A DNA stretch of 24,000 nt from NCBI GenBank assembly GCA_040399915.1, contig JBBARE010000001.1:44100-68099 (forward strand), read 5' to 3'. Source of the stretch: Bacteriovoracaceae bacterium. GTDB taxonomy: Bacteria > Bdellovibrionota > Bacteriovoracia > Bacteriovoracales > Bacteriovoracaceae. This document shows positions 5,716 through 22,509 of the stretch, piece by piece. The notes beneath the pieces are model-generated. The model saw only the letters and a program-made list of their open reading frames with translations, did no database searches and had not been told where the DNA came from. Made by a program: the position numbers and the translations under genes. Each line of letters starts with the position of its first letter. The stretch's first letter is position 1.

Positions 5716-6552
5716 CTATTTAAAGCTATTCCCTTTACTGTAGAAAGTAAAACCTCCGCGGGTAAATGAACTGAACGGAAACTCAATTTTTGAAATGGAA
5801 TCAGTAGAGCCAATAACCAATATGCCGTCTGCTTTCAAACAAGAGGCAAAATTCTGCAGGATGAGTCTTTTATTAGCATCAGAGAAGTAGATGAAAGCAT
5901 TACGACAAAATATTATATCATAGCGCTGAGAACTTTGAGGTACTCGAAGCAGAAGATTTTCAGTACGAAAATCACACATGCCTTTAATCTGAATTCCAAC
6001 AGAGTGAGCATCTTCTTTTTCTTTGAGAAAATAACGACTGAAATAACCGCGGGGAACATCTTTAAGCGAACGCCCAGAGTAGACACCTTTTTTCGCCTTA
6101 TCAATAACTGCACGATCTAGGTCTGTACCCAAAACTCGTATGGAAGGAAAAACATTTCTGTCGAGTAATTCATTCAGAATAATCGCCATGGTGTAAGCTT
6201 CTTCCCCACTTGAACAAGCAGCAGACCAGAAACTAAAGGTAACGTCCCCGTTTCTTCTTTTTTTATCTACAATTTCAGGTAAAAGTAATTCTGAAAAAGC
6301 TTGAAGCTGACGAAACTCACGAAAAAAATACGTTTCATGTATTAAAAAATTTTCTGCAATTTCGATTAGTTCTTTGGACGTTGGAGATGCTGTTAAGAAA
6401 TTAAGAAAATCATGCTCGTGCAAAAATCCCGCTTTTGACTGGATAGAGCCGAGGGTAGACATTTGGGACATGAGCTTATTTTCATCGCAACGAATGCCGT
6501 ATTGTTTTTCGATGAGTAACGAAAGAGAGCGAATGGTTTCTTTATGCCACAT
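5716..6552 (-). CDS. cheR: Chemotaxis protein methyltransferase CheR
   Basis: Motifs ETYFFREFRQL, FWSAACSSGEEAYTMAIIL, VLGTDLDRAVIDKAKKGVY and IFCRNAFIYF. The ATG overlaps the cheB stop by 11 nt. Confidence 0.9.
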   Translation of the reverse strand: MWHKETIRSLSLLIEKQYGIRCDENKLMSQMSTLGSIQSKAGFLHEHDFLNFLTASPTSKELIEIAENFLIHETYFFREFRQLQAFSELLLPEIVDKKRRNGDVTFSFWSAACSSGEEAYTMAIILNELLDRNVFPSIRVLGTDLDRAVIDKAKKGVYSGRSLKDVPRGYFSRYFLKEKEDAHSVGIQIKGMCDFRTENLLLRVPQSSQRYDIIFCRNAFIYFSDANKRLILQNFASCLKADGILVIGSTDSISKIEFPFSSFTRGGFTFYSKGNSFK

Positions 6553-7459
6553 CAGAATTTCCCTTTATCACTCTTGACCATTTATGGATAAAGTCAGGGA
6601 TATCTAGCAAGCTAATCTCATTTGAAGTCGCTCCCATTTCGAGAGCAGTCTTAGGCATCCCAAATACAAGGGCAGATTGTCGTGATTCAGCAAAAGTCGA
6701 CGCCTCTAGATCTCTGGATAGTTTTAGCGCAAGCGCCCCATCGCTTCCCATTCCTGTCAAAATACCTGCGAGAAGATTCTTCCGAAATGCCAACGCAATA
6801 GAATAGAGAGAGAGGTCAATGAGAGGCTTGTGAAGTGTTTCTGGTGTGGTTGTTTGAAAAAAAACGGGCTTATGATTCCTATCTACCCCAAAAAATGATT
6901 GAAAACCTGAGGGCAAAACATACCACTTTCCTGGATTTAAAGGCCCAAGATGAGAGGCTTCGCAAATCATTAATTTGTCCTTGCGAGATAGATGATCCAC
7001 TAACCCTTGGGTCTGACCAGCAGGCATATGTTGAGCTAATACATAAATTGTTTGAGAGTTTAGCTGTATTTTAGGGAGAATTTTTTCAAGTGCTGCAGGC
7101 CCACCTGTACTAAGGCCAAGGAAAACGATATTTTGACTCGGCGTCATCCGGTAAGTAGCGGTCTTAAAGAGATGCCAGTATTCAGGGATCTGCGAAAAAA
7201 TATAAGGAAGGACACCAAACTTCATATCCTCTAGACCTTGATGAACAGGAACATGAATAGTCTTATTAAAACCAGCCAATGCCATAGACTCATCTGCAAT
7301 TAAAATATTAAAAAAATTTTCGTCGAGTGCTTGAAATTTATTATCTGCTCGTATTTTTGCATAAACTCGAACGCCAGCAGATAAAAGGTTTGATTCAATC
7401 CAGCTTCGAAAGACGGGTGAACTTGAATGAATAAAAATACGGATGTTACTAGGCTGCAT
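6542..7459 (-). CDS. cheB: Chemotaxis methylesterase CheB with a degenerate N-terminal receiver-like domain
   Basis: The catalytic domain carries GLSTGGPAALEKILP (Ser), AQHMPAGQTQGL (His) and LTGMGSDGA (Asp). The N-terminal ~100 aa are receiver-like but have IFIHSSSP where the DD acidic pocket is expected. The maximal ORF extends to a GTG at 7507. I prefer the ATG at 7459 (MQPSNIRIFIH) because it gives an 11-nt overlap identical to three other junctions in this block. Confidence 0.85.
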   Translation of the reverse strand: MQPSNIRIFIHSSSPVFRSWIESNLLSAGVRVYAKIRADNKFQALDENFFNILIADESMALAGFNKTIHVPVHQGLEDMKFGVLPYIFSQIPEYWHLFKTATYRMTPSQNIVFLGLSTGGPAALEKILPKIQLNSQTIYVLAQHMPAGQTQGLVDHLSRKDKLMICEASHLGPLNPGKWYVLPSGFQSFFGVDRNHKPVFFQTTTPETLHKPLIDLSLYSIALAFRKNLLAGILTGMGSDGALALKLSRDLEASTFAESRQSALVFGMPKTALEMGATSNEISLLDIPDFIHKWSRVIKGNSDVA

Positions 7460-8339
7460 GCTTAACAAACCAGTCTGAGTTAATAAAAAAGATTGTTCTG
7501 TCTTCACTAATACGCAACATTTTATGAATCCACGATTTACCCATACCGCTAAAAGTATCAGACAATAATTCCAAGCCGCTTTGCGAGAATGGAGTGACTT
7601 CTGTCATAAGCTCTACACGGTAGCCTATTAACTGATCCTCACACTTCACTACAATAATCTTTGAGGTATCTTTCCCCCCATTAAGATCTAAGTTCTGAAT
7701 TCCGGCAATTTTTCTGAGATCAATAACGGGAAGAACAATTCCACGCAAGTTTATGACCCCTTCAATAACAGATTTTGTATCAGGTACGGAACGGGATTCT
7801 TTACCTCTGATAATTTCAACAGTTTCTTCAATCGAAAAAGCATACTCACAGTTGCCGAGCTTAAAACAAATCGCTCTAGACGATGGAGTTGCTTCTTTAA
7901 CTAATGCAGCCGTATCAGAATCTACATTTTTTTCAGTTACAGACTCATCAGAAAAGAGATGATCCAAATCCAATAAGTAAATCGGTGCTAAAAAATCAGG
8001 CAAACTAAAAATGCGCTGACAAAACTTCGGAGATCCGCTGCTTTGTCCATGCGGTTTCTGTTGAACAGAATCCGAGTCCACATCAAAAATTCGACTTACC
8101 GAAGAAGTTGATAAACCGAGCATGTTCCCTTGTCGCTCTAACAAAATTGTTTTTTTGACTGTTTCTGATGAAGGAGCTCCCATTAAGAAGCTTCCGGCAT
8201 CACAAACCTTAATAAATTTCCCTCTGATACACTCCACTTGCTCTGAAACTGAAAGGCCATCACGTCGTATGACTTCTCTTACGTCACTTAAGGATACGGC
8301 AAAGTTGGTATCCGAAGCTTTAAATATAATAACTTTCAT
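7449..8339 (-). CDS. cheW: Double CheW-domain coupling protein
   Basis: There are two CheW-like modules. The N-terminal one is divergent (KVIIFKASDTNFAVSLSDVREVIR). The C-terminal one is canonical (ICFKLGNCEYAFSIEETVEIIR...VINLRGIVLPVIDLRKI...IIVVKCEDQLIGYRVELMTEV). The ATG at 8339 is preceded by GAGG at 5-nt spacing. The ORF track starts 2 codons earlier at a GTG (8345). Confidence 0.85.
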   Translation of the reverse strand: MKVIIFKASDTNFAVSLSDVREVIRRDGLSVSEQVECIRGKFIKVCDAGSFLMGAPSSETVKKTILLERQGNMLGLSTSSVSRIFDVDSDSVQQKPHGQSSGSPKFCQRIFSLPDFLAPIYLLDLDHLFSDESVTEKNVDSDTAALVKEATPSSRAICFKLGNCEYAFSIEETVEIIRGKESRSVPDTKSVIEGVINLRGIVLPVIDLRKIAGIQNLDLNGGKDTSKIIVVKCEDQLIGYRVELMTEVTPFSQSGLELLSDTFSGMGKSWIHKMLRISEDRTIFFINSDWFVKHAA

Positions 8340-8348
8340 AGGCACCTC

Positions 8349-10265
8349 TTACATGTATCCAAATTCTTTAACCATCGAAGACACCTGCTCAACCTGGAGA
8401 CTTAAATCTTGAGTTGAGGTTGACTGGCGTTTAGCAATTTCTGCAGACGACTTAGCACTCTCAGAAATGATTCCGGCAGCACGACTTACTTCCTCAACAA
8501 TAACAGATCCGTTTTTACAAGATTGTTCAGACTCAACTGCTTTTGAGACCATTTCATTTGCAAGTTCAGTAAATGATTTAGCGCAATCGATGAGGTTTTG
8601 CATTTGAACAACAGATTCTTCTGCTCTAATGAAATCACGCTGAGCAGATTGATTCACGCGACTGATGTAATTCTGAACAAGGATTGTTTTTTCGTAAATT
8701 TTATCTAGAAGATCTTCAATAAGATCTGAATTAGAAGAAGTATCTGATGCTAGCGAGCGAATATCGCCTGCCACAACAGAAAATCCCTTCCCTGACTCAT
8801 TTGCCCTTGCCGCTTCTACACCACCACTAACTGATAGCATATTAGTCATAAGGGCGTTTTCACGAATAGAGCGTATGAACTTTTGAATTTTTGATACAGA
8901 AGATTTTAATTCCGATGCGTTGTCCTGAGATTGGCGCGAGGAATTTGCTGTTTTTGAAAGACTTTGTTGGATTCCAACAATAATTTCTGTCAGTTTCTGA
9001 AAAGTTTGCTCAATTGAATGCCCTGAAGCTTTAAAACTTTCAGCACTCTTAAGAATTGATTCAATTTTTGCCCGAGCATCCTGAATGACGATAAGAGATG
9101 AATCAGCTTGTTCAGACTGAGAGCTTGCACCTTCAGCAATTAGACTAATGGCCGCTGCAACTTCCTGAGCAGAAGCATTTGTTTCCTGAACAGTTGCTGT
9201 GAGCTGCTGGGAAGAAGAAGCGAGCATATCTAAGTATTCGGAGCTGTTGTTTAACAAATACTTTCTTGATTTGTCGCTAAGAAGCTTGGAAGATTCCATA
9301 ATGTCAGTCATGGCAACAAATTGTTCTTCACAACTTGCGAGAGCTTCAGCTCCAGAAGAAGAAGTTTGTGCTGTTGCCGCTGCAACTGAATCTACACGTT
9401 GTTTAAACGATAAAGCGTCTCGAGTGACGTCTTCAGTATCTCTTGCCATCTTACCGGCTTCAGTTGAAACCAGCTTAATGACTTCAGAAATTTCACCCAA
9501 ATGATTAATGACGACTTTAACATTTTCAATATCCGTTTTAGCTGATTCAGCACCACTATTTGAAAGAGACATGATAAGTTGAACATGTCCATGAATAGAA
9601 GAAATTGTTTCTGTGACAAGACAAGCACTCTTTTCAGCAATTTCTGCAAGATTTCTTACCTCATCCGCCACAACTGCAAATCCTAAACCCTCGCTCCCAG
9701 CGCGTGCAGCCTCGATTGCAGCATTTAATGCAAGAAGATTCGTTTGTTCAGCAATGTCTGCCACCGCTGTAATAACAGAACTAATTTCTTTTGAAGATTG
9801 CTGAAGTTCAAGCACTAAGCGACTAGTTTCAAGACACACGCCCCCTGCATCTTCAACAGAATGTTTCCAACCACTGACACCACGAAAAAACTCTTGGATT
9901 TGCGATTGTAAAAGTCCTGCTTTGTTGTGAGCAGTCTGAGAATGGTCATTAAGATTCTTAGAGTTATTTAGAATCAAGTCACCTATTCGAATAGATTTAT
10001 CAACTAGAGATCTGACGATATTACTTTGGTCGTTGACTTCAGACATGGTCACTTTTAGTTCCTGAGCAGAGTCTGAAATGCTTTCAGAAGTCGAGGCGAG
10101 ATCTTCAGTCAAAAGATTTAATCGCTCAGCAGCTTGCTGCTTAAGCCATTTCTTACGCTCTGAGATTCTACTCCCAGTATCATTGGCACTATTGACGACC
10201 TCAAGAATTTGGCGTTTTTGGGGGGAAGGCGAATCAATTTTTGTAGGTTGCTCTAATTTCTTCAT
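8349..10265 (-). CDS. Soluble (no TM segment) methyl-accepting chemotaxis protein with two tandem signalling-hairpin modules
   Basis: Canonical tip [38 protein letters not shown] (aa ~170-208) plus a second, divergent tip [39 protein letters not shown] (aa ~469-507). Heptad-spaced methylation-consensus matches ATVQETNA and ASAQEVAA are present. The N-terminus is hydrophilic. ATGA overlap with the cheA stop. Confidence 0.9.
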
Positions 10266-11950
10266 GCGCTTTTCTCCTTGAGCGTGAGTTCGAGATTATC
10301 TCGATCGTTTATTTTTTCTGTAATAAGTTTTTTTAAATCTAGAAATGGAACAGGTGTACCGTCTCCGATAATGGACATACCGAGCATACCAGGTGCGGTA
10401 CTCATCCAACGGCCTACTGGTTTGACCATGTGCTGCCCTTTAGAGCCGACATGATCAACTGGGATGCAGAAGTAACTGTTATTAACATTAACGATGATCC
10501 CAGTCGCTTTTTCGGAAACGATGAGATTATCAAGATTTGTATCAAGAGGAATAAATTGATGAGAAACTCCGGCCATCTGATAAACGATTAGATCAGGAAC
10601 TGGAGTTCGAATTTTCTTACGATCGATATTTATTACTCGAGTCACACCATTGATTGATACAAGATATGATTTTCCGTTGTGTTTTATAGAGAGAGCTTCC
10701 GAAAGACCATTGCACAACGGAATTTGTAAATTAAACTGAGTCCCAAAATTAATTTCCGTATGAATTCGTAATGAACCACCTAATGATTCAATATTTGTCC
10801 GAACAACATCTAAACCAACACCTCTGCCTGAAAACTCAGAAACCTGTTCTGCGGTTGAAAATCCAGGTGCAAATAAAAGCTCTAACACTTTGCCTTCAGA
10901 CCAGACATCTGCTTCGGCGCCAACGATGCCTTTTTCTTTTGCTTTTGCGAGAATTTTTTTTCCATCAATTCCACGCCCATCATCTTTGATGGTTATTTCA
11001 ACGACTGTTGGTTCAACATTAATGTGAATAGATAAATTTCCAGTTTCAGTTTTTCCTCTTCCTAATCTTTCTGACGGAGTTTCTAACCCATGATCAAGAG
11101 AGTTACGTACCATGTGAACGAGTGGATCTACTAAGGCATCTAAAATGGGTTTTTCAACGTAGTCAGTATTTGATGTGAAATTAAATAAAATTTTCTTATT
11201 TAACTTGTGGGCGGTATCTCTCACGACTCTGGAAACTCGTTGTTTAAGGGGATCAAGAGAACTTTTTTTCATATCAAGGACACGTTCGTTTAGTTCACGG
11301 ATATTTTTGTCCATAAGGCCAACAACGATTTGAAGTTGACGAGGCTCAAAAATATTTGAAAGAAGCTGTGCTCTGAGAGTTGCAAGCTCTCCAACAACTT
11401 GTTGAATATTATTAACCCGATCTAATGGAACCTTTAGTACTTGTTGATTGGGTTGTCCGACTTTCCTAGGCCCTGCTTGCTCTGGTTCTTCATGGTTAGT
11501 TTCTGATGCTGGACTTGCCTCAACAACATTCTTTTGGATTGCCATTTCAGCTTCAACGATTGAAACTTCTGCATTAATACGCTCGATCATTTTTTCAACT
11601 GCTACTTTGTCAATATCTTGCTTTGATGCAACAAAATTGAAGCAGTTTTTTAGAAGATCAGTTGTCTCAAGCATGAGACCGTTACGTTCCTTTGAATTAA
11701 GGTCAGGCCTTTGTCTTAAATAAGTTAAAAGATTTTCAAATTTATGTGCAAAGCCTGAGATATATTCAAGACCAACTGCTGCTGAAGACCCCTTTAAATT
11801 ATGGGCCACCCGGAAAGCTTCATTCAGAGCATCCACAGAACCAGGATTCTCATCTAAAATGAGGAATTTCTTTTCCATCGATTCAATCAGCTCAAGCGCC
11901 TCTTGAACGAAAATCTGCATAATTTCAAAAAGTTCGTCATCATTTTCCAC
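10262..11950 (-). CDS. cheA: Chemotaxis histidine kinase CheA (P1-P3-P4-P5; no recognisable P2)
   Basis: Hpt motif [16 protein letters not shown], dimerisation region [22 protein letters not shown]-box [17 protein letters not shown]1 DDGRGID, F-box [12 protein letters not shown]2 GRGVGLDVV, and a C-terminal CheW-like domain. Only about 40 aa of linker lies between P1 and P3. GTG start at 11950 ([20 protein letters not shown] fits typical CheA N-termini). Confidence 0.9.
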
Positions 11951-13232
11951 AGTGATCCTTTGAACACATCAACTGCTGTGTCTCAAAAAAATGAGATAAA
12001 TCTTTTCCGCGTGAATTTTCTAGTAAATTCTCTGTTCGGTCATCAACGACAATTTCATAAAGAGAACAGGTCAAACCAGAGAACTGGTAGAGACGTTCAA
12101 TCGCGCAATCTTTTTTTGTTAGACTAAGATTAAATTCAACAAACACAAAAACTTGAAGTCCATTTTGAGTCGGTTTTATAGAGACATTAAGTGCATTGAT
12201 ATCTTTTAAAAGATTTTCTTCCAGGGTTTTAAGATTTATCCATTGTCCAGACGAGGATTTAATCTTCTCTGATGCGCGACAAATGACATCAATCCTTCCA
12301 TCATCGGTTTCTACGCATAAGTCATTTGTTGGTTGCCAATCACACGGAGTTTTAAGGTCATCACCAAGACTCCAACTTTCTGATTTCACAAAAAGCTCAC
12401 CGTCTTTGATTTTAACTTCGCATCCGATCGCGCGACCATTTAATAAAACACCAGGCCCAGCTTCAGTTAAGCCGTAACCTTCATAAACTTTCCCTTCTTT
12501 AATCCAGTCCTTGCAACGTTCAGCGAGAGAGTGATTTAACCTAGCACCACCAATAAAAATTGAATCAGGTGCTCGAGGAGTTTGACGATTATTATAAAGA
12601 ATAAGCTCTAATTGTCTTGGAACCAAAGAAAGGTGCTGAATATTGTATGTATCAAGCATCGTCGTCATCCACTTGCGAGAACCTCGTAATTTTTGATCAG
12701 CTGGGCAGTAAACGACAGACTTTGAATAAAGACCAAGAACAAGATCAAGAACAAGCCCAAATGCATGGCCCCAAGGAAGTATAGCAAGTCGTTCAGTCTC
12801 AGATTGGTAACTAAAAAACTCACTATGATTTTTTAGCTGGAGAAGAATTCCTTGCCGAGTATAGTACCGAGTCTTAGGTTCACCAGTTGACCCAGAAGTT
12901 TTAAGTTCAAGTAGGATGTCTTTATTTCGGAGAGCGTGAGAGTTTGTTGATTGAAGAATACCTCTTGGTTTTGAGTCATCTGGTACAAAGACGTAGTGCC
13001 CGATAATAGACGCAAAAAAGTCTATGATAAATTCTTTACCAAATGAAGGAGAGGAGATTCTATCACCAGGGCGCGCCCCTAGCCTTTTTAATTCCGTTGA
13101 GCGTTCAAAAGCGAGCGACCAAATATTTGGTCCTGATAATACCTCTGAAACTTTACCAAACTCATCGCACCATGCAACAGATGGATGTTGTAGATCGCAA
13201 AGTATATTTCGAAAAGTGCGACTAAGATCCAT
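11940..13232 (-). CDS. pcl: Short adenylate-forming acyl-CoA ligase, probable p-coumaroyl-CoA ligase (pCL) for PYP chromophore activation
   Basis: AMP-binding motifs LKTSGSTGEPK and YEGYGLTEAGPG, and a TND..DDGRIDVICRASEKIK region (TGD-like). Its ATG overlaps the upstream lyase stop by 11 nt, and it is in one block with pyp. Confidence 0.75.
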   Translation of the reverse strand: MDLSRTFRNILCDLQHPSVAWCDEFGKVSEVLSGPNIWSLAFERSTELKRLGARPGDRISSPSFGKEFIIDFFASIIGHYVFVPDDSKPRGILQSTNSHALRNKDILLELKTSGSTGEPKTRYYTRQGILLQLKNHSEFFSYQSETERLAILPWGHAFGLVLDLVLGLYSKSVVYCPADQKLRGSRKWMTTMLDTYNIQHLSLVPRQLELILYNNRQTPRAPDSIFIGGARLNHSLAERCKDWIKEGKVYEGYGLTEAGPGVLLNGRAIGCEVKIKDGELFVKSESWSLGDDLKTPCDWQPTNDLCVETDDGRIDVICRASEKIKSSSGQWINLKTLEENLLKDINALNVSIKPTQNGLQVFVFVEFNLSLTKKDCAIERLYQFSGLTCSLYEIVVDDRTENLLENSRGKDLSHFFETQQLMCSKDHCGK

Positions 13233-14586
13233 AGGAATTCCAAGATTTTAAGTGGAGTTGTGGACTTACTTCTTCTCCGCGTCGGAGCGAAAACGCTCTA
13301 TCGAAGACGAAACTTGTTGCTCGAATCATCTCTCGAGCAATTTCCATTTGTTGAGAAAGACTATTAAGAGCTGCCATCCCACAGGGAACGATGTCTTGAT
13401 TGTTACCTTCACATGAGAAACTTAGCATGCGAGAAGGTACCTGATGCGATTTGAGTTGCTGCAGGAGTGAAGACATTAACTGATGAATGCCCTTCAAGTG
13501 TGATTCGCCTTGAAGTTCTAAATTTCTTGGCAAACCATTATTAAGATCAGGCGACATAAATATTAGCACTTGCCGATCAAGCATCTCACAAATACGAAAT
13601 ACTCCATCAGCGATAAGGTCAGCTGCCTGAGCAATTGGAAGCGCATAAAAATGGCCACCATGCCAGATCTCATTTTCAAGCACAACTGGGTTATCAGCAA
13701 TTCTTAGAGCTTCAAGTTCAATCCGTTCACCTGCTTGCTTAAAGCTCCAGAGAGCACTACCAAGAACATTTGGCGAGCAACGGATAGAGTATCTTGCTTG
13801 TTCTTCACCAGCACCTTGGATTGAAGTTGCAGTTTCCGATTTCTCAAAATCAGAGATAATATCAACCATTCGTTTTGCTACATAGGAAACATTTGTGCAC
13901 TGATGAGGAAGATCAATTCCAGAAGATGTAAAGTGACGAACACCGTATCCTGAAGCGTAACTCCCAATAGAAGCTAATCGAATGGCATCATAAAGGAAAT
14001 TATTGGCCTGTGAGAAAAGTTCAATCCCAAAACTTGCCATTACGGAATTTGTATTAACTAAAGTAAGGACATCCCTTGGACCCTGTACATCGTCTTTTTG
14101 ATTAAAAAGGGGAGCGACAGCATGTGCCATAGTGACCAAATCACCACTGGCACCGAGACTTCCATAACAAGGAACCTGGGGCATTGATTCGGATTCACAA
14201 AGTTCAATAAGCCGCTTAAAAGTTTCAGGATGAATACCTGAAAATCCAAGCGAACTTTTATACGCCTGAAGCTTTAGTGCACGACGAACAACCGATTCGG
14301 GTAGTGTCTTACCGACTCCAACTTGCAAATATTTTAAAAGAGCAAACTGATGTTCTTTCCAATCATTACTTGCAGAGGCTTTTACATCTGATCCAAACCC
14401 AGTGTGTAGACCATAAATTTTTCTATCGCTATTATTCGTATAGTTAAGAAGACGTTGATACGATTCAGAAACTCCTCGCTCGCTTCCCGCCGGTAAAGAG
14501 AATGAAGCTCTATTTCCCCAGGCAACAAGGTCTAGAAGATCAGGCGCAACTTTAGATGTTTTTATTTGAGTGTATTTTTCTATCAT
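13222..14586 (-). CDS. tal: MIO-dependent aromatic amino-acid ammonia-lyase, probable tyrosine ammonia-lyase (TAL)
   Basis: HAL/PAL/TAL family motifs YGLHTGFG and GSLGASGDL (the Ala-Ser-Gly MIO triad is encoded at 14143-14151). The substrate-switch position reads Tyr-Leu (LLKYLQVGVG), closer to PAL/TAL [F/H]-L than to HAL S-H. It is adjacent to pcl and near pyp. Confidence 0.8.
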   Translation of the reverse strand: MIEKYTQIKTSKVAPDLLDLVAWGNRASFSLPAGSERGVSESYQRLLNYTNNSDRKIYGLHTGFGSDVKASASNDWKEHQFALLKYLQVGVGKTLPESVVRRALKLQAYKSSLGFSGIHPETFKRLIELCESESMPQVPCYGSLGASGDLVTMAHAVAPLFNQKDDVQGPRDVLTLVNTNSVMASFGIELFSQANNFLYDAIRLASIGSYASGYGVRHFTSSGIDLPHQCTNVSYVAKRMVDIISDFEKSETATSIQGAGEEQARYSIRCSPNVLGSALWSFKQAGERIELEALRIADNPVVLENEIWHGGHFYALPIAQAADLIADGVFRICEMLDRQVLIFMSPDLNNGLPRNLELQGESHLKGIHQLMSSLLQQLKSHQVPSRMLSFSCEGNNQDIVPCGMAALNSLSQQMEIAREMIRATSFVFDRAFSLRRGEEVSPQLHLKSWNSYGS

Positions 14587-16001
14587 GATGCACCCTTTAA
14601 GTTATGAACATCAATTATATTGATCAGGCTATCGCCTCCGATAACGACTCCCAGGCAACTTTTACTTTCTTTGATTCCTATGCCCGGCTTAAGGGAGCCA
14701 CGAACGATTCCTACAACTTCCTCAACTTCAATGACAAACTGCCCTGCGCCCACATCATCAATCACAACGTATGAAGATTTAGAAGTTGTTGCTTGAGCAC
14801 CAAATCCAGTAGATTCTTTTAAAGAAATCAATGGAAGATTTTGAGACGAATTTATAGATGCGAGTCTTTTGATTTTATCCAGCTCAATGACTGAAACATT
14901 TTTTTCAATGCGGACAACATAGTTTGTAGAAATTCCAAAAAGCTGAAACTTATCATTTTGAGCTTGTCTCACGACCAGATATTCATGAAGACTGCGAAGA
15001 TCGCAGTGAAAAACCAAAGAACTCGACGAGTCAACCTTTGAAGTCTCTATCAAAACACCCAAGTGGGCAAAGCGTTTTAAATCAAGCTCTACCGGTGTAC
15101 TTGAGTCAGAATCCTCAATGAATTCGAAACGGAGTCGTCCCTTTTCGCGCTTTACTGACCAAGAAATGTTGACATGAGATTCATTAAAAGCATGTCGACT
15201 CTTAGCATTTTTTTCGCGAATTGAAAAAATACACTTCATCCATTCCTCAGCTATTGTTCGGAACGCAGTTGCAACTTCAGGTGCAATTCTTATGTTCTGA
15301 TCACAGTCGCCAATATTTAGAACTGCACGGGTGTTTGATTTTCGTAGCCACGGAGTTAATAGAACGAGAAGGTTTTCATTCAAATCTTTTACGTTTAACC
15401 AAACAGACTGAGCATAAATTTCAGCTACTTTAAGGATAGTATGATCCATTTTTTTAATTAAATCTGGATTGCGGATAACAATATCGTCGCGGGATTGAAA
15501 AAGGGATTCGTTAGTCAACTGCGAACATTTATCAAAGGATTCAACAAGATCGTAAAAACGATTAGCTAATGATGTTCTGTATTTTATCGATTCAACAGGC
15601 TCACTTGCAATTTTGTAAACCCAGAAAAGATCTTCCGAATTAATAAAGGTTTCAATGACACCAAGAATATAGGAGAGGCAGGCACCCTTTGCCATGAGAA
15701 AGGGTTTTGCCTCCCCTAATGAAAATGTTTGGTATTGCATTTGATTGTTGTATCGGTTCCACTCGAGTCGAATTTCAAGCCAAAGAGAAGGGAGAGAGCC
15801 GTGAGCTTCAGAGTCATCATCGTCGATACGGAGATCGTTGATACTTGAAGAAATTCCTTCAATTGTATCATTGTAAAACTTATGGATTAATTCCACTTCG
15901 TCTTGCTTTAGAGTATCGAGCCCTTCAACCATTTGATCGAATAAAGCACGTGTATCGCTGCTCTGTAATGTTTCAACTATTTCATTCGTTCTGAAGTTCA
16001 C
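14583..16001 (-). CDS. Hypothetical protein with a C-terminal CheW-like domain preceded by a degenerate CheA P4-like (pseudo-kinase) region; N-terminal ~210 aa unassigned
   Basis: The C-terminus YLVVRQAQNDKFQLFGISTNYVVRIEK...YVVIDDVGAGQFVIEVEEVVGIVRG...CLGVVIGGDSLINIIDVHNL resembles CheW/P5. The preceding AVLNIGDCDQNIRIAPEVATAFRTIAEEWMKCIF...GRLRFEFIEDSDS follows the CheA P4 layout but lacks N-box and G-box residues. GTG start at 16001 with GGGGAG 7 nt upstream. ATGA overlap with tal. Confidence 0.55.
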   Translation of the reverse strand: MNFRTNEIVETLQSSDTRALFDQMVEGLDTLKQDEVELIHKFYNDTIEGISSSINDLRIDDDDSEAHGSLPSLWLEIRLEWNRYNNQMQYQTFSLGEAKPFLMAKGACLSYILGVIETFINSEDLFWVYKIASEPVESIKYRTSLANRFYDLVESFDKCSQLTNESLFQSRDDIVIRNPDLIKKMDHTILKVAEIYAQSVWLNVKDLNENLLVLLTPWLRKSNTRAVLNIGDCDQNIRIAPEVATAFRTIAEEWMKCIFSIREKNAKSRHAFNESHVNISWSVKREKGRLRFEFIEDSDSSTPVELDLKRFAHLGVLIETSKVDSSSSLVFHCDLRSLHEYLVVRQAQNDKFQLFGISTNYVVRIEKNVSVIELDKIKRLASINSSQNLPLISLKESTGFGAQATTSKSSYVVIDDVGAGQFVIEVEEVVGIVRGSLKPGIGIKESKSCLGVVIGGDSLINIIDVHNLKGAS

Positions 16002-16011
16002 AATGGCTCCC

Positions 16012-16416
16012 CTATCCTACGTTTGGCATCCTACCGACAATTGCAGCCTCAAAAAGAGCAGATCCAAGCTCGCGAGCACGCTTTTGCATCTCTATACGCT
16101 CTTCACCACTTTTCGCAACTTTGTGCTCTAAATCCATCTTTTCATCAATGAGTGATTTTACCTGGTCCTCAAGACTAGTGATCATTTCTGTCACTTCAGA
16201 TGATCCAGATGATCCGGTTGAAGCAGTCGGGAAATTCTTTTCCTGGTAAATCGAATTTAATTGTTCTTCAAAGCTTGCTACAGCTTCGCGCAATTCATGA
16301 ATTTCTGATTCGTTACCGTCTGACTGCTTTTCATCGTACATGGCAATCAATTGATTCTCCATGCTCTGGAGAGATTCGCGCAAACTTTCAACAGTATCAC
16401 GATTGTTATTAAACAT
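16012..16416 (-). CDS. Small acidic coiled-coil protein with a three-fold internal repeat (unknown function)
   Basis: 134 aa from the ATG at 16416 (MFNNNRDT...). An AGGAG lies 7 nt upstream of this ATG and overlaps the pyp TAG stop. The repeats are ESLRESLQSMENQLIAMYDEK, ELREAVASFEEQLNSIYQEK and EMITSLEDQVKSLIDEK. The longer ORF-track start (16479) would overlap pyp by 53 nt and is unlikely. Confidence 0.65.
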   Translation of the reverse strand: MFNNNRDTVESLRESLQSMENQLIAMYDEKQSDGNESEIHELREAVASFEEQLNSIYQEKNFPTASTGSSGSSEVTEMITSLEDQVKSLIDEKMDLEHKVAKSGEERIEMQKRARELGSALFEAAIVGRMPNVG

Positions 16417-16426
16417 AGTAAATCTC

Positions 16427-16801
16427 CTAAGCAGCTTTTTTCTGAACGAAAACCCAGTTTGTTTTTGTACTCTTATCATGCAAAAGATGAATCTGAACGT
16501 TTGTCGGCCTCATTTTATAAGTGAAGGTATAATTGAAAGCAGAATTCAGATCTCCCATTTCAATACCAGACTTAAATTTTCCAAAAAAAAGTTTATTGTT
16601 CGTACAAGGAGCCACTTCTGTAAAAAAGTTTTTACCTTCTGCCGTTACTGCAGCAACACCTGCAAGTTCAGATTCATAACGATTATAAAGTAAAATTTTT
16701 CCATTATTATCTACTTTTACAATCCCGTAAGGAACATTATCCACCTCCCCGCGCGTGAGTGAACCAAGTTTAGAAAGGATGTCTGGCGTAACAAAACTCA
16801 T
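16427..16801 (-). CDS. pyp: Photoactive yellow protein (PYP), single-domain PAS blue-light photoreceptor
   Basis: It aligns along its whole length with Halorhodospira halophila PYP recalled from memory. [51 protein letters not shown] matches [61 protein letters not shown] matches ILQYNAAEGD, and the C-terminal NWVFVQKK matches YWVFVKRV. The chromophore Cys is encoded at 16604-16606. The ATG at 16801 has GGGAGA 7 nt upstream and gives 124 aa. The ORF-track start at 16822 adds 7 residues. Confidence 0.92.
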   Translation of the reverse strand: [124 protein letters not shown]

Positions 16802-16836
16802 ATCAATATCTCCCGTTTTCATGACTCGTCATTGAG

Positions 16837-17913
16837 TCAAGCTGCAATTTTAAATTCGTCTGATTGTTTTTTCTCTAATACGACACAAAGGCGTATGACA
16901 GTTTTCATGACTTTATCAAAAGCTAAGCTTTCTTCATTTTCTGATTGATTCTCCAGAAGATTTTCAAGCTTAAGACCTACATCGATCAATTTTTGTGCTT
17001 GTGTATGAAATTCTTCATCTGTCGTTGCCATCAAAATCCCGACTCGCAATTCTCTAAGGGTATTAGAAACCTCGGAGAACTCACTTGAAAAAGCACTACG
17101 AACTTCTCTTTCTTTAACAAGAAATTCGATTCCACTTGAGAATTCTTTTACCCATTCTTCGTAATCAAAACTATTAAGGAACGATGCATTTGTTAATTGT
17201 GCCTCTTTGAATACAGAGATTTCCTTAACCTGATGCTTTTTTCCAAGGAGATAAGCGACAGTTAAAAAAATGAAAACAAGAGCAACAGAGGGAAAGATTG
17301 GTAGCCTGGATTCTCTTTGCTCGCCTGCTGGAGAACGATCGCCCTTTGAAAGTTCTGCTCGTGCCTTTGAGACAAGTTCTTTGAGCTGATCAATTTGCTG
17401 TTTATCTAAACTAACAATAAAATTTGGATTTTGTTGATACCATCTGATTGACCAAAGAGAAGAAAGATCATCAATTGATTTTGTTAAAGCACCAGACTTC
17501 AATGGTTTTCTTGATTGATTAAAAAAGTTTTGATCACGAAGATCAAGAATACTTAAAAGTAATTTCTTGAAAGAAGACCACTCTTTAACAGATTCATCAA
17601 GCCCATAAAAAAGAGCTTCGTTTTCGAGTTGTTCCCAATCAGTTCGCAAACTCGACGTCAAAGAAGTTGACCGTAAAGATGCTGGCACTTCAGACGCAGG
17701 AATACCTGAGGGGTCATGCGCAATTGTAAAATAAAGCTTTTCTTCAAATTTTTTAAGTGACTGCCATTTAACAAGAGGGACTATTTTTTTCTGGTGATTT
17801 GAACTTAAGCTCAATTCAACTAAGCGAAGCGCTTCAGCTAGTTTTTCATTTGCTCCAAGAGAGTAACTCGCAGTAGAGCAAAAAATTAAAACAGTTAAAA
17901 TTATTTTGAGCAT
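16837..17913 (-). CDS. Membrane protein with receptor-like topology (N-terminal signal/TM1, ~180-aa periplasmic region, TM at aa ~204-224, ~130-aa helical cytoplasmic tail); function unknown
   Basis: N-terminus MLKIILTVLIFCSTASYSLGA, and a hydrophobic segment LPIFPSVALVFIFLTVAYLLG followed by KKHQ (positive-inside). Strong RBS GGGAGGA 5 nt upstream of the ATG at 17913. It is the first gene after a 337-nt AT-rich gap, and its stop is 35 nt from the preferred pyp start. Confidence 0.7.
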   Translation of the reverse strand: MLKIILTVLIFCSTASYSLGANEKLAEALRLVELSLSSNHQKKIVPLVKWQSLKKFEEKLYFTIAHDPSGIPASEVPASLRSTSLTSSLRTDWEQLENEALFYGLDESVKEWSSFKKLLLSILDLRDQNFFNQSRKPLKSGALTKSIDDLSSLWSIRWYQQNPNFIVSLDKQQIDQLKELVSKARAELSKGDRSPAGEQRESRLPIFPSVALVFIFLTVAYLLGKKHQVKEISVFKEAQLTNASFLNSFDYEEWVKEFSSGIEFLVKEREVRSAFSSEFSEVSNTLRELRVGILMATTDEEFHTQAQKLIDVGLKLENLLENQSENEESLAFDKVMKTVIRLCVVLEKKQSDEFKIAA

Positions 17914-18250: not shown

Positions 18251-20347
18251 TTATTTAACTTTAAGACAAACACCAAAATAGCCTGGACCCTTATCAATCC
18301 GCCCTTCTGCCTCAAGAGGAATCATCGCCATTGGTCCTGAACCTGAGGAGAGAGGAATTTTAATAGTCTCACTTATCAATTCAGTTAATTTTTTATCGAT
18401 CGTGCTTTTCACGATACCGCTGAAGAAACTACTTTCTTTAAGTGCGTAGCGAGCAGTACCAGGAACAACGTTCCAATGAGCATTTCCATTTTCAAGACAG
18501 AAAGCACTGTCGTCACAGATGTTAGGAGTGAATCCAATTTCAAAATTAATATCACCGGCAATTTTACCTTGTCCAAGCGCAACTGCTCCACGAAAACATT
18601 CTTTTGTCTTAAAATCGACTTTATAGCCTCCAGACGTCTGATCAAATTTTAATTGGGGAGCACCATTTAAAAAGCAGCGCATTCCACCTTGGCTTTCTTC
18701 AATCGAAAATGAACAGCCATTTCCACGCGGAGACCCGTCTCCATTACGAATGATTTCATTTTTATTGTTTGTTTCTGGAATGAAGTCGCCCTTACCGCTA
18801 TGACAAAGTCTGCCGGATTTATACATCTCAGTCATGAGCGAGTTTATTTCATTTAAATCGACATAAGTCTGAATGGGGCAATTAGGAATGCTTTTCCTCT
18901 CGTGAGGAGACGGATTATCTATATCACATAATTCAGGAATACTTATCCTAAAACCTGCAGTTGATCCGTTTCCAAGATTTGTCATCAGGAGAACGTTGTT
19001 AAAGAGACCTGACTCGAGCTGCTTGTCTGCAATTTTCTTGTTGATAGGTTGAAGTTTTGATTCAAAAATTGATCCGAGATTCAAAGCTGTCATCCGCTCT
19101 TCAAAACTTGCTACTCTCTTTCTAATATCTTCAGACGTCACCTGATCATAGCGCACCATCTGATCCTCAATCATTTTGGCAGCATCTGCAGGTCGTGGAA
19201 TATCTTTAAGAAGTAGTGTTTTTTTCTTAAATGGGTAAAGCTGGTTTAAACACTTATGTTCAACAGGAATTGTTTTTTTCTCTTGTTTTAGAATTGAGCA
19301 ATCCATCAGGTCGACATATTTTTTCACGGCCATGTTTCCAACGCCCATTTCTGAAAGAAAAGAATTAGTGGGTACAGAAATTTGAGTAGGTTCTTTTTTA
19401 TCGAGTTCCGTAATCATGGTCGAAACCTGAAGCTGGAAAGTTTTCGCAAGAGATGCCTGAACAGCATCCTCCATGGTTGGTCTGAAATATCTGGCAAGGG
19501 GTGGAATCGCCGTTAATTTCAAAATACTTTGAGTGGCAGGAGAATAACCTGACAGTCCTCTTATATTTGAACCAGCAAGAGCTTCGTTAATCATACCGTC
19601 TGAAACGAAGTTTCCATTTTTTCTTTCAATCAAAATTTCTGATAACGGTTCTGCAGAAGTGAGATTGAGTTTCGCATTCATGCAAACTTCGCGCTTACCA
19701 TCAAGTTTGATATTGATGTTATCCATTCCCATACGTTCATACTCAAGGTTTTCTTCCTTACTGAACTCAACATCAACCCCAACGCTAATCTCCAACGCTA
19801 AAATATCAAAACAAGCTTTAAGCACTCCATCAGCTGCTGAAACACTCAAAGGCTTCATATCAAGCTTTTTAATGCCAACTGGTTTAGGGAAGTGAATCAT
19901 AGACGGGCGGGCAAGACTTTTAGGACCACATTTTTCCATTCCCTGGCTTCCCATGATTAGTGAACACGGCAGAGTTGTACAAATTTCTGTCTTCACTTCC
20001 ATGCTTGTGTCCGGACTCGCACAGATTCGTGGATCTTCACAATTAATGGCTTTAAACTTTGGATCTCCCTGCGCTTTTTCTTTTTTACAAATAATGATAT
20101 TGGGCGGGAATCCAACTGATTCCATGGAATAATCAGTTAGAACTTTTGCTTTGAAGCCGTCCGAATTAAAAAGAGCCGTGAGTGATGGTACAAGGGCATC
20201 ATGCAGTTTTGGAGAGCTTGATGAAGCAGTTTTCAGTGCTTCACCTTCAACTTCCATGCGCATAAGTTGCGACCGACAATTACAATCAATTTGTGCGTTG
20301 GTATTTGTGATAACAAATAAGAGAAGAAGCGAAGTCCATGTTCTCAT
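18251..20347 (-). CDS. Secreted cysteine-rich protein of unknown function (paralog B)
   Basis: Signal peptide MRTWTSLLLLFVITNTNAQ. It is collinear with the upstream paralog, for example IPELCDIDNPSPHERKSIPNCPIQTYVDLNEINSLMTEMYKSGRLC versus LPELCSDKPSPHAGKKIKNCPVQVYADLNEFNKVLKKMFDTGRLC, with C-terminal GPGYFGVCL versus GPGYFGACL. ATGA overlap with the upstream gene. Confidence 0.8.
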   Translation of the reverse strand: MRTWTSLLLLFVITNTNAQIDCNCRSQLMRMEVEGEALKTASSSSPKLHDALVPSLTALFNSDGFKAKVLTDYSMESVGFPPNIIICKKEKAQGDPKFKAINCEDPRICASPDTSMEVKTEICTTLPCSLIMGSQGMEKCGPKSLARPSMIHFPKPVGIKKLDMKPLSVSAADGVLKACFDILALEISVGVDVEFSKEENLEYERMGMDNINIKLDGKREVCMNAKLNLTSAEPLSEILIERKNGNFVSDGMINEALAGSNIRGLSGYSPATQSILKLTAIPPLARYFRPTMEDAVQASLAKTFQLQVSTMITELDKKEPTQISVPTNSFLSEMGVGNMAVKKYVDLMDCSILKQEKKTIPVEHKCLNQLYPFKKKTLLLKDIPRPADAAKMIEDQMVRYDQVTSEDIRKRVASFEERMTALNLGSIFESKLQPINKKIADKQLESGLFNNVLLMTNLGNGSTAGFRISIPELCDIDNPSPHERKSIPNCPIQTYVDLNEINSLMTEMYKSGRLCHSGKGDFIPETNNKNEIIRNGDGSPRGNGCSFSIEESQGGMRCFLNGAPQLKFDQTSGGYKVDFKTKECFRGAVALGQGKIAGDINFEIGFTPNICDDSAFCLENGNAHWNVVPGTARYALKESSFFSGIVKSTIDKKLTELISETIKIPLSSGSGPMAMIPLEAEGRIDKGPGYFGVCLKVK

Positions 20348-22509
20348 TGGCCTGACGCCTCTTTCGGAATTTCAAGACAAGCACCAAAATAACCCGGCCC
20401 ACTATCCACGCGCCCCTCCGCTTGCAGTGGGATATTCGCCATAGGCCCCACTCCCTGTGCCATCGGAAGACGGATGGTATTTTTCATGGAACCTGTAATC
20501 GCTTCATTTAACTTCTTAGTAATTAAACCTTTAAAGAAACTAGAATCAGAAAGTCCAAAGCGCTCAGTTCCAGGCACGACGCTCCATTTAATGTCCGGAT
20601 TCTCCATGCAGAAGTCACCATTACTGCAAGCCTTGGGTTGGAAGGCAAAATCAATATTGAAATCACCACCGAATTTACCAATTCCAAAAATAACCGGACC
20701 ACGGAAACATCCCTGAAGGCCTAGATTGAAGCCGTATTTTTTAGTTTTTGTATCGTATTTAATCTGAGGCGGTGCTTTCATGTGGCAACCCATGCCCTCA
20801 ACCTCAACGTAGCACCCACCGTTTGCCAGAGGTTTTCCTTTTTGATCGTAAGCTGGTTTTCCGAAAGCATCTAGTTTCGGGTCATACTCCCCTTCACCTT
20901 TCATACACAAGCGACCTGTATCAAACATTTTCTTTAACACTTTATTAAATTCATTTAAGTCAGCATAAACTTGTACCGGACAATTTTTTATTTTCTTTCC
21001 AGCGTGGGGTGAAGGTTTATCTGAACATAATTCCGGGAGACTGAGACCAATACTATTGGAAGTACCTTGATTTAACTGGCCTTGAATTTCCATAAAATCA
21101 TAGAGCTGATTTTCTAATTGATTATTTGCAATGGCGTCGATTAAAGGATTCATTTCTTCGTCAATTTTCCGTTGTGCAGCTTCAGTGTGCCACAGCTGGA
21201 TTTCTGCAATTTCTTCTTCGTTTCTTCCCTGTGTAAAAAAGCTACTCGGTTTTTCTGCGAGGATAACTTCTTTTAAAGCAATCAAGCGTTGCTTGATACT
21301 TTCAGAAGTAATTTTTTTTCCTTTCGCCATACTGAGGAAATAATCTAACTCTATGCCAGAGCCATCAAGCTCTGGAGTCACGACTCCTGAGAAATGAGGA
21401 AGACCCAGGCAAGGATGTTTAGGTGGAATCTCGCGTTTTGCCATTTTAATCTGAGAACACTCAGCTTTAGCGAGCTGATCTTTTACTTGCATGTTCACTA
21501 AACCTAATTCACTCATCATGTTGCGTGAATCAACAATAGTCGTTAAATTACTGGCAGCAATAGGTGCTACCGTTTTCTTAATAAGATCAGTAAAAACAGT
21601 ACTTAAACTATCTTTCAAACTTGTTTCAATTGAATCACGTAGTGGATGAAATAAGACTGGAATCAACTCGGCTTGAATCTGCGCCAGCTGATCCTGTGGA
21701 TAACCGCTTAAGCCCTGGATTTGGAGTTTTTTCGCTGCTTCCCTGATCATGCTATCAGAAATAAAGGGACCACTGCCTTGGGGAGTAAGCTTGATATTTG
21801 TGACCGGATCAATGCTTCCAATATTAATACTAGCACTCACGCAAAGTTCTCTAGGGCCCTCGAGCACAGGATTAATATTATTAATATCAATTGATTTATC
21901 AGGAAGTGATGTCTTTCTCGTATCCAGAGATAAACTCGTGCTCATCTTGATATCAAGTTCATTGATCCGAAAGCAAAGATTAGCCACTCCGTTTCTAAAA
22001 TCGACCTTCGTTGGAGTCATCCCCATTTTTTTTATTTCCAGCGGAGTTGGAAATGAAATTCCATTCGGATAAATATCTTTAGTCTCATTGCATTTACCGG
22101 GATTTAAAGTTCCCTCAAGAATCGGACAAGGAAGCTTGAAGCAAATTTTTTCTCTCACTTCAGCATCAAGATCCGATTCTGAGCAAAGACCAGGCTTGTG
22201 ACAATCAAGATTTTTGAACTTCTCATCACCTTCAGCTTTTTCACGTAAACAAGTTTCAAGTGTTTGCGGAAACCCGATGGGAATTAAAGGATAAGTTTTT
22301 TGAAGCAATGAAGTTAAAGCGGGTGACTCAGATAGATTTTTTAAAGCTGGTAAAAGTCCCTGCGCATTTCCTGAACTCAAAACATTAGCGGCAATTTCAA
22401 GACGCAAAAGTTGTGAAGCACATTTTGTCGCACAATCATTCTCGGCTTCGGCAAAGGATAAAAAACTAAATAAGAGAAGACCTACAACAAGCCAAATATG
22501 AGGAACCAT
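20344..22509 (-). CDS. Secreted cysteine-rich protein of unknown function (paralog A)
   Basis: Signal peptide MVPHIWLVVGLLLFSFLSFAEA. It has about 20 Cys, largely aligned with those of paralog B. Shared motifs include GLSGY, CFRG, GDFNI/GDINF, W.VVPGT.R and GPMA.IPL.AEGR.D.GPGYFG.CL. Confidence 0.8.
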   Translation of the reverse strand: MVPHIWLVVGLLLFSFLSFAEAENDCATKCASQLLRLEIAANVLSSGNAQGLLPALKNLSESPALTSLLQKTYPLIPIGFPQTLETCLREKAEGDEKFKNLDCHKPGLCSESDLDAEVREKICFKLPCPILEGTLNPGKCNETKDIYPNGISFPTPLEIKKMGMTPTKVDFRNGVANLCFRINELDIKMSTSLSLDTRKTSLPDKSIDINNINPVLEGPRELCVSASINIGSIDPVTNIKLTPQGSGPFISDSMIREAAKKLQIQGLSGYPQDQLAQIQAELIPVLFHPLRDSIETSLKDSLSTVFTDLIKKTVAPIAASNLTTIVDSRNMMSELGLVNMQVKDQLAKAECSQIKMAKREIPPKHPCLGLPHFSGVVTPELDGSGIELDYFLSMAKGKKITSESIKQRLIALKEVILAEKPSSFFTQGRNEEEIAEIQLWHTEAAQRKIDEEMNPLIDAIANNQLENQLYDFMEIQGQLNQGTSNSIGLSLPELCSDKPSPHAGKKIKNCPVQVYADLNEFNKVLKKMFDTGRLCMKGEGEYDPKLDAFGKPAYDQKGKPLANGGCYVEVEGMGCHMKAPPQIKYDTKTKKYGFNLGLQGCFRGPVIFGIGKFGGDFNIDFAFQPKACSNGDFCMENPDIKWSVVPGTERFGLSDSSFFKGLITKKLNEAITGSMKNTIRLPMAQGVGPMANIPLQAEGRVDSGPGYFGACLEIPKEASGQ

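Follow-up and report, generated by a model that had tools for sequence, protein, structure and literature searches.

The stretch of DNA analysed here, called the window, comprises 24,000 nucleotides from a Bacteriovoracaceae bacterium (assembly GCA_040399915.1, contig JBBARE010000001.1, positions 44,100 to 68,099) and carries on its minus strand a tightly packed row of genes in the order 358-aa gene, pyp, coiled-coil gene, a gene that we call X, tal, pcl, cheA, an MCP gene (MCP, methyl-accepting chemotaxis protein), double cheW, cheB and cheR. The pyp gene encodes a genuine photoactive yellow protein (PYP, a blue-light sensor), as its product matches H. halophila PYP structures with E = 6e-30 and retains Tyr42, Glu46 and the chromophore Cys69. 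X had been described in an earlier interpretation of the DNA letters, hereafter the sequence-only reading, as an open reading frame (ORF) between pyp and tal that looked like a catalytically dead CheA P4-P5 module. Here, we show that X is a real and conserved paralog of CheA that is dead as a kinase and carries a new, pyp-linked domain of input type. The ORF itself (14583..16001, minus strand, 472 aa) holds, with the addition that the coiled-coil gene sits between pyp, which lies about 430 nt upstream, and X. It begins with a GTG start, 5 nt downstream of the ribosome-binding site GGGGAG, its stop codon and the tal start share an ATGA overlap, and MNFRTNE is the common start of X and its orthologs. 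The photoreceptor gene, the coiled-coil gene and the domains of X are laid out as follows (window positions).

16427..16822, minus strand: pyp, probably in its 124-aa form from 16801 (cluster members have 124 aa), ending in KKAA
16012..16416, minus strand: coiled-coil protein, 134 aa, from an internal ATG with AGGAG 7 nt upstream (start chosen from sequence and homolog lengths)
15597..16001, minus strand: X aa 1-135, all-helical N-domain (AlphaFold2 (AF2) model, hidden Markov model (HMM), conservation)
15336..15596, minus strand: X aa 136-222, CheA P3-like hairpin (putative dimerisation) and first P4 helix (Pfam domains of relatives, Foldseek, hhalign)
14991..15335, minus strand: X aa 223-337, degenerate CheA P4 with HATPase_c fold, hereafter P4* (Foldseek, profile, hhalign, MAFFT)
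14586..14990, minus strand: X aa 338-472, CheW-like/CheA P5 domain (Pfam PF01584, family profile)

X is a kinase-dead paralog of CheA

A Pfam scan of X returned CheW alone (PF01584, aa 355-468, 25.4 bits against a cutoff of 23.5) and an NCBIfam scan returned no match; the PF01584 scores of its relatives range from 25.7 to 86.6 bits. The single X sequence matched the PDB CheW 2qdl with E = 0.006, and a family profile built from 22 members and used against the PDB matched CheA P5 and CheW chains at 1e-10 to 1e-5, which confirms the CheW/P5 fold that had been proposed for the C-terminus.

The AlphaFold model of full-length X, based on 7 homologs and of moderate quality (pLDDT 65.6), is helical in its N-terminal half, forms an alpha/beta sandwich over residues 224-334 and is rich in beta structure at the C-terminus. 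In the PDB it is matched best by structures of CheA P3-P4-P5 (3ja6_C with 1.2e-11, 6s1k_A, 1b3q_A, 2ch4 and 3ur1); isolated histidine-kinase catalytic domains come next, with a target-normalised TM of 0.55-0.60. The 22-member profile matched E. coli CheA at 1.4e-10 in two pieces, with profile positions 259-327 corresponding to CheA 374-444 (N-box through G1) and positions 318-476 to the equivalent of CheA 484-648 (end of P4 and P5), leaving residues ~445-483 of E. coli CheA without counterpart. With hhalign, X 163-472 aligned to residues 183-545 of the CheA encoded in the same operon (E = 3.8e-5). The Pfam HATPase_c model does not match X; by Foldseek, profile and hhalign, X aa ~215-335 (nt 14997-15359) is a CheA P4 homolog. 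Profile and structure searches, which the sequence-only reading had proposed as a check, thus recovered both an HATPase-like centre and a CheW fold at the C-terminus.

In the hhalign alignment and in a second one, made with MAFFT and including genuine CheAs, the ten-residue N-box stretch of CheA is replaced in X by CIFSIREK and a gap, the G1 motif DDGRG by EDSDS and the G3 motif GxGT by DSSSS, while the F-box, G2 (GRGVG) and the ATP lid of ~55 residues have no counterpart. The loss of the N-box and of the G1/G2 glycines and the shortening of the lid, all read earlier from the letters, are therefore upheld: neither alignment contains an intact ATP-binding motif, and the lid deletion amounts to ~55 residues. 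Across the family, D297 is the sole invariant residue of P4*, and no conserved catalytic-looking motif was seen in this domain. With the N-box Asn/His, the G1/G2 glycines and the F-box gone and the lid deleted, the P4 of X is predicted to be unable to bind ATP. X also has no Hpt, as judged by the lack of a Pfam Hpt match and by an hhalign probability of 0.3% between the N-domain profile and the Hpt of the operon CheA. A resemblance of LMAKGAxLS in the N-domain to HxLKGS had raised the option that the N-domain is a degenerate Hpt, which we ruled out on the basis of this hhalign result and the absence of Hpt folds among the Foldseek matches. Lacking both an ATP-binding P4 and an Hpt, X would be unable to serve as kinase or phosphodonor.

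Pfam gives no direct P3 (H-kinase_dim) match in X. The relative P0119 (P numbers denote proteins and L numbers denote loci gathered in this analysis) has Pfam H-kinase_dim at 138-202, a position aligned with the P3 of X; Foldseek matches to CheA-289 (1b3q) and P3P4 (4xiv) span X aa 136-222, where the AF2 confidence is low, and the hhalign alignment to the operon CheA covers the P3 region from aa 163. Since distant relatives carry these Pfam domains behind the same N-terminal region, we assign X aa 136-222 to a putative P3 hairpin of the CheA type and the first P4 helix. The N-terminal ~210 aa, said in the sequence-only reading to match nothing, hence fall apart into two units: aa 1-135 indeed match no known domain, whereas aa 136-222 have a probable counterpart in CheA P3. 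Likewise, P4 and P5 of the proposed P4-P5 module were found, but the module is best read as P3-P4*-P5.

An exhaustive profile search gathered 126 relatives of X, 24 of them at E <= 1e-30, from Bdellovibrionota, Alphaproteobacteria, Planctomycetota, Myxococcota and Bacteroidota, carrying public labels such as 'chemotaxis protein CheW', 'chemotaxis signal transduction protein', 'Hpt domain-containing protein' and 'hypothetical protein'. Some have kept more of the kinase: P0097 has HATPase_c over the Pfam cutoff together with CheW, P0119 combines H-kinase_dim, a weak HATPase_c (below the Pfam cutoff) and CheW, and P0123, P0052 and P0070 have weaker HATPase_c matches and CheW. Aligned with MAFFT, the P4 domains form a series.

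Step 1, intact CheAs: every box present
Step 2, P0097, P0123, P0119, P0052 and P0130: N-box lost, G1 kept (degenerate in P0119 and P0130), lid degenerate
Step 3, P0070, P0075, P0056 and P0082: larger deletions
Step 4, core family: lid gone, DDGxG and GxGS retained
Step 5, X subclade: DDGxG and GxGS lost too

The Mg-ATP-binding N-box is missing from every relative that carries the N-domain ahead of P3-P4-P5, so that kinase death is a trait of the family, and in the alignment X appears as its most reduced form.

Selection was estimated from the ratio of nonsynonymous to synonymous substitution rates (dN/dS, Nei-Gojobori) between the two closest X orthologs, those of L003 and L004, and amounts to 0.084 for the N-domain, 0.020 for P3, 0.031 for P4* and 0.023 for P5. 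Between the window X and L003/L004 the synonymous sites are saturated, with pN just 0.09-0.17. All four domains are under strong purifying selection, and the value for P4* marks it as a maintained structural module.

The N-terminal domain belongs to a new family

Modelled by AF2, the N-domain is all-helical and of high confidence (pLDDT 96, pTM 0.87). It is the most conserved part of X: identity to 18 distant family members is 36% in the N-domain against 17-18% in the other parts, and the family-invariant residues cluster there. The conserved block in X reads WLE.R.EWNR.N.QMQYQTF..G.A.P.LMA.G, and the ~135-aa helical domain is characterised across the family by the motif W..E.(K/R).EW.R.N..(M/L)(Q/N)YQ....G..(D/K)P, with W81 and N85 invariant in 42 diverse members. 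It is covered by neither a Pfam nor an NCBIfam model, its sequence matched nothing in the PDB, and a Foldseek comparison of the model with the PDB gave no significant neighbour (best E = 1.2).

The domain is not unique to X, as had been thought. A family HMM, which matches X aa 4-141 at 2.4e-58, finds 129 copies in 124 proteins among those gathered here, which makes it a widespread family. A word-index homolog search with the N-domain alignment returned 0 matches compared to more than 100 by exhaustive search, which we read as a limitation of the prefilter. The N-domain occurs alone (130-170 aa), in tandem with two or three copies, and ahead of P3-P4*-P5 modules. In a further set of 295-351 aa (P0034, P0036, P0040, P0042, P0049 and similar) it is followed by a helical linker and a P4*-like region, and P5 is absent; the P4* HMM confirms this region in P0049 (3.9e-8) and P0042 (1.7e-6), the others resting on alignment by eye. 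Only signalling modules (P3-P4*-P5, CheA, the coiled-coil protein) were found as its fusion partners, TAL and pCL never.

The fusion to CheA is P0126, a CheA that looks intact (Hpt; N, G1, F and G2 boxes; divergent P5) and bears the N-domain at its C-terminus. We ruled out that the N-domain replaces P5 in this protein, as BLASTP aligns P0126 to CheA through P5. Its locus, without MCP or CheW nearby, is given here.

L030, 8001-12233, metagenome-assembled genome (MAG) of Bdellovibrionaceae, MBC7741934.1: CheA-N-domain gene (P0126), pyp, a 136-aa gene, cheY and cheX

A MerR/B12-binding (CarH-like) regulator is encoded upstream of P0126 in L030. In several distant loci a gene for an HDOD protein lies between a stand-alone N-domain gene and an X homolog (e.g. 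L012 6564-7748), and in L037 (4784-6373) HDOD is part of an MCP-HDOD-N-domain operon that is divergent from pyp.

Linkage to pyp and the coiled-coil protein

The arrangement of pyp, coiled-coil gene, X and tal is kept among orthologs from 81% down to 24% identity. Whether the N-domain co-occurs with pyp in other genomes, a question raised by the sequence-only reading, was assessed in 34 fetched loci and the window, the loci having been chosen via the N-domain. All 22 distinct loci containing pyp have an N-domain gene within ~1.5 kb of it, and in 16 of these the N-domain gene starts ~75-150 nt past the pyp stop. Most loci without a detected pyp end, with their contig, close to the N-domain gene, L025 and L027 being short contigs. 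Each of the six N-domain architectures sampled adjoins pyp, tal or pcl.

The coiled-coil protein belongs to a family without Pfam model, characterised by repeats of L.S(L/M)E.QL..(L/M)Y.E. Its homologs are present in L001, L002, L004 and L009-L037 and adjoin pyp in most loci, that of Leptospira meyeri included. Natural fusions of N-domain and coiled-coil protein were detected with the coiled-coil family HMM in P0111 (E = 5.2e-30) and P0066 (E = 8.5e-8). P0111, which consists of the N-domain and two subsequent coiled-coil units, is encoded directly after a tal gene. By Rosetta-stone logic such fusions indicate that both proteins work together. The earlier suggestion that the N-terminus is a docking site for PYP or the coiled-coil protein thereby receives strong but indirect support, from co-location with pyp and from these fusions.

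As a control, three loci were picked by PYP similarity alone. The N-domain is present in two of them, both from Planctomycetota, as a stand-alone gene (E ~1e-35) that is adjacent to pyp in one and ~3.3 kb away in the other. The coiled-coil gene stands immediately upstream of pyp in all three, suggesting that it is the more universal partner within this PYP clade.

Two further arrangements were noted among these clusters. In L031 (9748-12666) and L032 (4722-7640), pcl and tal are fused into one 972-aa gene downstream of the X relative P0097. In L036 (11508-16435, a Planctomycetota MAG), gas-vesicle genes (GvpL/GvpF, Gas_vesicle, CDC48-type AAA) adjoin a cluster of N-domain, coiled-coil, pyp, pcl and tal genes; a neighbourhood of pyp and gas-vesicle genes has also been reported from Rhodobacter capsulatus.

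The chemosensory system of the operon

Downstream of X, the operon encodes chromophore synthesis and a chemosensory system with an intact CheA; the gene upstream of pyp completes the row.

16837-17913, minus strand: 358-aa membrane protein, directly upstream of pyp, no Pfam match, ending in KIAA
13222..14586, minus strand: tal, aromatic amino acid ammonia-lyase that makes the chromophore (Pfam Lyase_aromatic, 3.4e-72)
11940..13232, minus strand: pcl, AMP-binding CoA ligase that activates the chromophore (Pfam AMP-binding, 1.6e-21)
10262..11950, minus strand: cheA, intact kinase (Hpt; HATPase_c with N, G1, F and G2 boxes; P5)
8349..10265, minus strand: MCP, 638 aa (Pfam MCPsignal in 2 stretches)
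7449..8345, minus strand: double-CheW coupling protein (Pfam CheW in 2 stretches, 1.3e-35), ending in KHAA
6542..7507, minus strand: cheB, adaptation enzyme (Pfam CheB_methylest)
5716..6552, minus strand: cheR, adaptation enzyme (Pfam CheR)

The MCP is soluble, with a maximum 19-residue Kyte-Doolittle score of 1.04 and no membrane segment, and has two tip-like signalling motifs '(A/V)EAARA', around aa 175-208 and 470-505. No recognisable sensor domain was found in it. As this receptor lacks both membrane segment and sensor, the array built on it needs input from outside. Promoter and terminator scans gave no more matches than shuffled sequence and were not used.

The N-terminus of the 358-aa protein is signal-peptide-like, and a single hydrophobic segment lies near aa 205-225; L001 (29% identity) and L004 (45% identity) have a counterpart in the same place. 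These two features and the lack of a Pfam match led us to reject its identification as an HDOD protein. Upstream of the cluster, at 18251-22509 on the minus strand, lie two large ORFs of 698 and 721 aa; neither Pfam nor NCBIfam matched them, and the N-terminus of the longer product is hydrophobic.

Several proteins of these loci end in two small residues. In the window these are X (GAS, 14586-14597), PYP (KKAA, 16430-16441), the double CheW (KHAA, ~7452) and the 358-aa protein (KIAA). An [AGS][AGS] C-terminus was found in 50 of the 124 N-domain proteins (27 ending in -AA, 10 in -AS) versus 6.2 expected from composition, and 17 of 24 PYPs of related loci have an -AA extension past the canonical ...FVKKK end. 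The six-frame background in GC-rich loci is high (42/397 end in AA). Such tails might act as a degradation signal of the ssrA kind or serve in docking.

Comparison with known systems

Compared to the CheA core (T. maritima 1b3q, E. coli 6s1k/8c5v), X has the same order and folds of putative dimerisation hairpin, Bergerat-fold and CheW-like domain, with sequence homology detectable across the N-box-G1 region, the G3 region and P5, but it is devoid of P1 (Hpt) and P2 and carries a new N-terminal domain in their place. A survey of CheA (2023) defined homologs by HATPase_c and CheW, found P1, P3, P4 and P5 in all of them and stated that CheA lacks a sensor domain; its only case of a degenerate P4 is R. 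sphaeroides CheA3, in which a working Hpt is kept (PMC10782961). Like X, CheA3 is a CheA paralog with a P5 and a degenerate P4; it belongs to a cytoplasmic array in which a genuine kinase is also at work (PMC10782961). It differs in keeping a phosphorylatable Hpt and in being a substrate of CheA4, whereas X has no Hpt and carries the pyp-linked N-domain. CheW and CheV likewise use a CheW-like domain for lattice contacts without kinase activity, as we propose for X, which adds P3 and a P4-fold domain (the footprint of CheA in the lattice) and an input-type domain.

In SRII-HtrII, CetB-CetA and the proposed Leptospira PYP-MCP pair (PMC9664959), the sensor is encoded beside its presumed chemotaxis target, as is the case here. 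In those systems the signal enters via the MCP, whereas in the present case it is a kinase-like scaffold or, in P0126, a real CheA that bears the conserved partner, and not an MCP. The R. capsulatus protein PBP (RCAP_rcc01067), of ~140 aa and encoded beside pyp, binds photoactivated PYP, and its authors found no PBP homolog in H. halophila (bioRxiv 10.1101/2021.06.01.446672). PBP demonstrates in principle that a small pyp-adjacent protein can bind PYP; it is predicted to be alpha + beta and the N-domain is all-helical, a difference in predicted secondary structure. Ppr is another reference point, as it binds CheW (PMC2993699). The two-tip MCP and double CheW of the operon resemble the V. cholerae cluster I array, with its double-signalling-domain MCP DosM and multi-domain CheW (bioRxiv 10.1101/2022.05.07.491037). 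This array includes no photoreceptor or pseudo-CheA, and the likeness, by description only, concerns the host array and not X. With respect to pyp neighbourhoods, 113 predicted pyp operons were surveyed in 2025, and GGDEF/EAL, HisKA/HATPase, pCL, TAL and BLUF are listed for them without any mention of CheW (PMC12826048); a 2022 study reports sensor-less MCP neighbours of pyp, with a few CheW neighbours given in a supplementary table only (PMC9664959). In the searchable literature we found neither X nor the N-domain nor the coiled-coil family described.

Proposed role of X and alternative explanations

From gene neighbourhood and domain content we infer that a light-input module is made up of PYP, coiled-coil protein and N-domain, and that X connects it to a cytoplasmic chemosensory array. 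X itself would be a CheA-derived pseudokinase adaptor bringing the PYP light signal into that array, a reading to which we incline, at slightly better than an even chance. PYP, probably together with the coiled-coil protein, would bind the N-domain in a light-dependent manner; X would dimerise via P3 or pair with CheA and take the position of a CheA in the P5/CheW lattice of the cytoplasmic array built on the sensor-less MCP. A light-induced change in PYP would then pass through X and alter the activity of the neighbouring genuine CheA. In relatives whose neighbouring genes include no che genes, this adaptor would connect to arrays encoded elsewhere. More broadly, and with somewhat less than an even chance in our judgement, the N-domain and the coiled-coil protein might be the missing transducer of the single-domain PYPs in this clade, a new input domain family that reaches arrays via a kinase-dead CheA paralog (in P0126 via an active CheA) and not via a receptor.

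A number of observations weigh against this proposal. Its functional part rests on gene context and domain logic. The linkage to pyp is mostly one-directional, most loci having been picked through the N-domain, and the PYP-first control comprises only three. The third of these, the Leptospira meyeri locus with pyp, coiled-coil gene and MCP, has no N-domain (E > 10), which implies that the N-domain is not needed for PYP signalling in every lineage; together with the coiled-coil gene in 3/3 loci, this weakened the candidacy of the N-domain as universal PYP partner. The che genes adjoin only in the subclade of X (window, L001, L003, L004), and no cheY was found in the window, in or beside the che cluster (5716-17913). 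Regarding the protein itself, the P3 and P5 parts of the full-length model are of low confidence and the P5 score only just exceeds the Pfam cutoff (25.4 vs 23.5). Finally, clade B PYPs adjoin sensor-less chemoreceptors and a PYP-to-MCP model has been published (PMC9664959).

The latter model leads to the explanation that the sensor-less MCP receives its signal directly from PYP, possibly joined by the coiled-coil protein, in the manner of CetA/CetB, X being only an extra structural coupling protein outside the light path. The gene set of Leptospira meyeri (MCP, coiled-coil gene and pyp, no N-domain), the MCP near pyp in L028 and L037 and the sensor-less MCP of the window itself speak for it. 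We nevertheless consider it unlikely, though it deserves serious attention, as four features of the N-domain are left without explanation: its conservation, which exceeds that of every other part of X, its close pairing with pyp, its fusion to the coiled-coil protein and its attachment to an intact CheA beside pyp with no MCP or CheW nearby; moreover, most N-domain loci have no adjacent MCP. It is also conceivable that X, in place of being a homodimeric lattice element, acts mainly through a heterodimer with CheA, formed via P3, which would put the N-domain and PYP at the place of P1/P2 and gate the autophosphorylation of the partner. The P3-like hairpin of X is strongly constrained (dN/dS 0.02) and aligns with the P3 of CheA, and the relatives P0049 and P0042, with an N-domain and a P4*-like region but no P5, suggest that docking to an array is not always needed. 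The identity of P3 to that of the operon CheA is low, however, nothing was found that would provide pairing specificity, and the conserved P5 of X argues for lattice contacts, which makes a gating heterodimer distinctly improbable.

Two other functions have little to recommend them. X might be an accessory enzyme similar to CheA3, e.g. a CheY-P phosphatase, with its activity in the degenerate P3-P4. CheA3 of R. sphaeroides has been reported to dephosphorylate CheY6-P. Its HATPase_c is degenerate and non-functional, and it acts in a cytoplasmic array (PMC10782961). Such an enzymatic role is very improbable: X lacks the Hpt that CheA3 has, the operon lacks cheY, and P4*, with D297 as its sole invariant residue, offers no conserved catalytic-looking motif. 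We attach equally small weight to a role of the N-domain and the coiled-coil protein in the maturation of holo-PYP (chromophore delivery or attachment) in place of signalling. Both genes do sit among tal and pcl, some stand-alone N-domain genes are located directly upstream of tal (L028, L038), and the invariant buried-type polar residues W81, N85 and E117 could form a small-molecule pocket, but the N-domain is fused only to signalling modules, never to TAL or pCL, and holo-PYP can be made with TAL and pCL alone. That X is a decaying, functionless relic of a duplicated cheA, as the loss of all catalytic motifs could suggest, is next to impossible. Orthologs are intact and of full length across identities of 81% to 24%, the gene is preceded by a good ribosome-binding site, its translation is coupled to that of tal, and a dN/dS of 0.02-0.08 in every domain, P4* included, led us to reject the pseudogene reading.

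Conclusions

PYP has been a model photoreceptor for decades. Its signalling chain is described in papers of 2025 and 2026 as an important gap, the partner being unidentified (PMC12826048, PMC13250908). The locus offers two small, conserved and co-encoded candidate partners of PYP, the coiled-coil protein and the N-domain, and, in a pseudo-CheA with a CheW-like domain, a ready-made physical route to the chemotaxis machinery. Should the N-domain and the coiled-coil protein be the missing transducer, light signals would enter chemotaxis arrays by a route that has not been described for them, and PYP would for the first time be linked to chemotaxis by a genetically defined path. An adaptor role of X would also mean that members of the CheA family can bear an input domain and that a CheA without kinase activity can act as a sensory adaptor. 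For the predatory Bacteriovoracaceae, the locus points to a light-guided behaviour.

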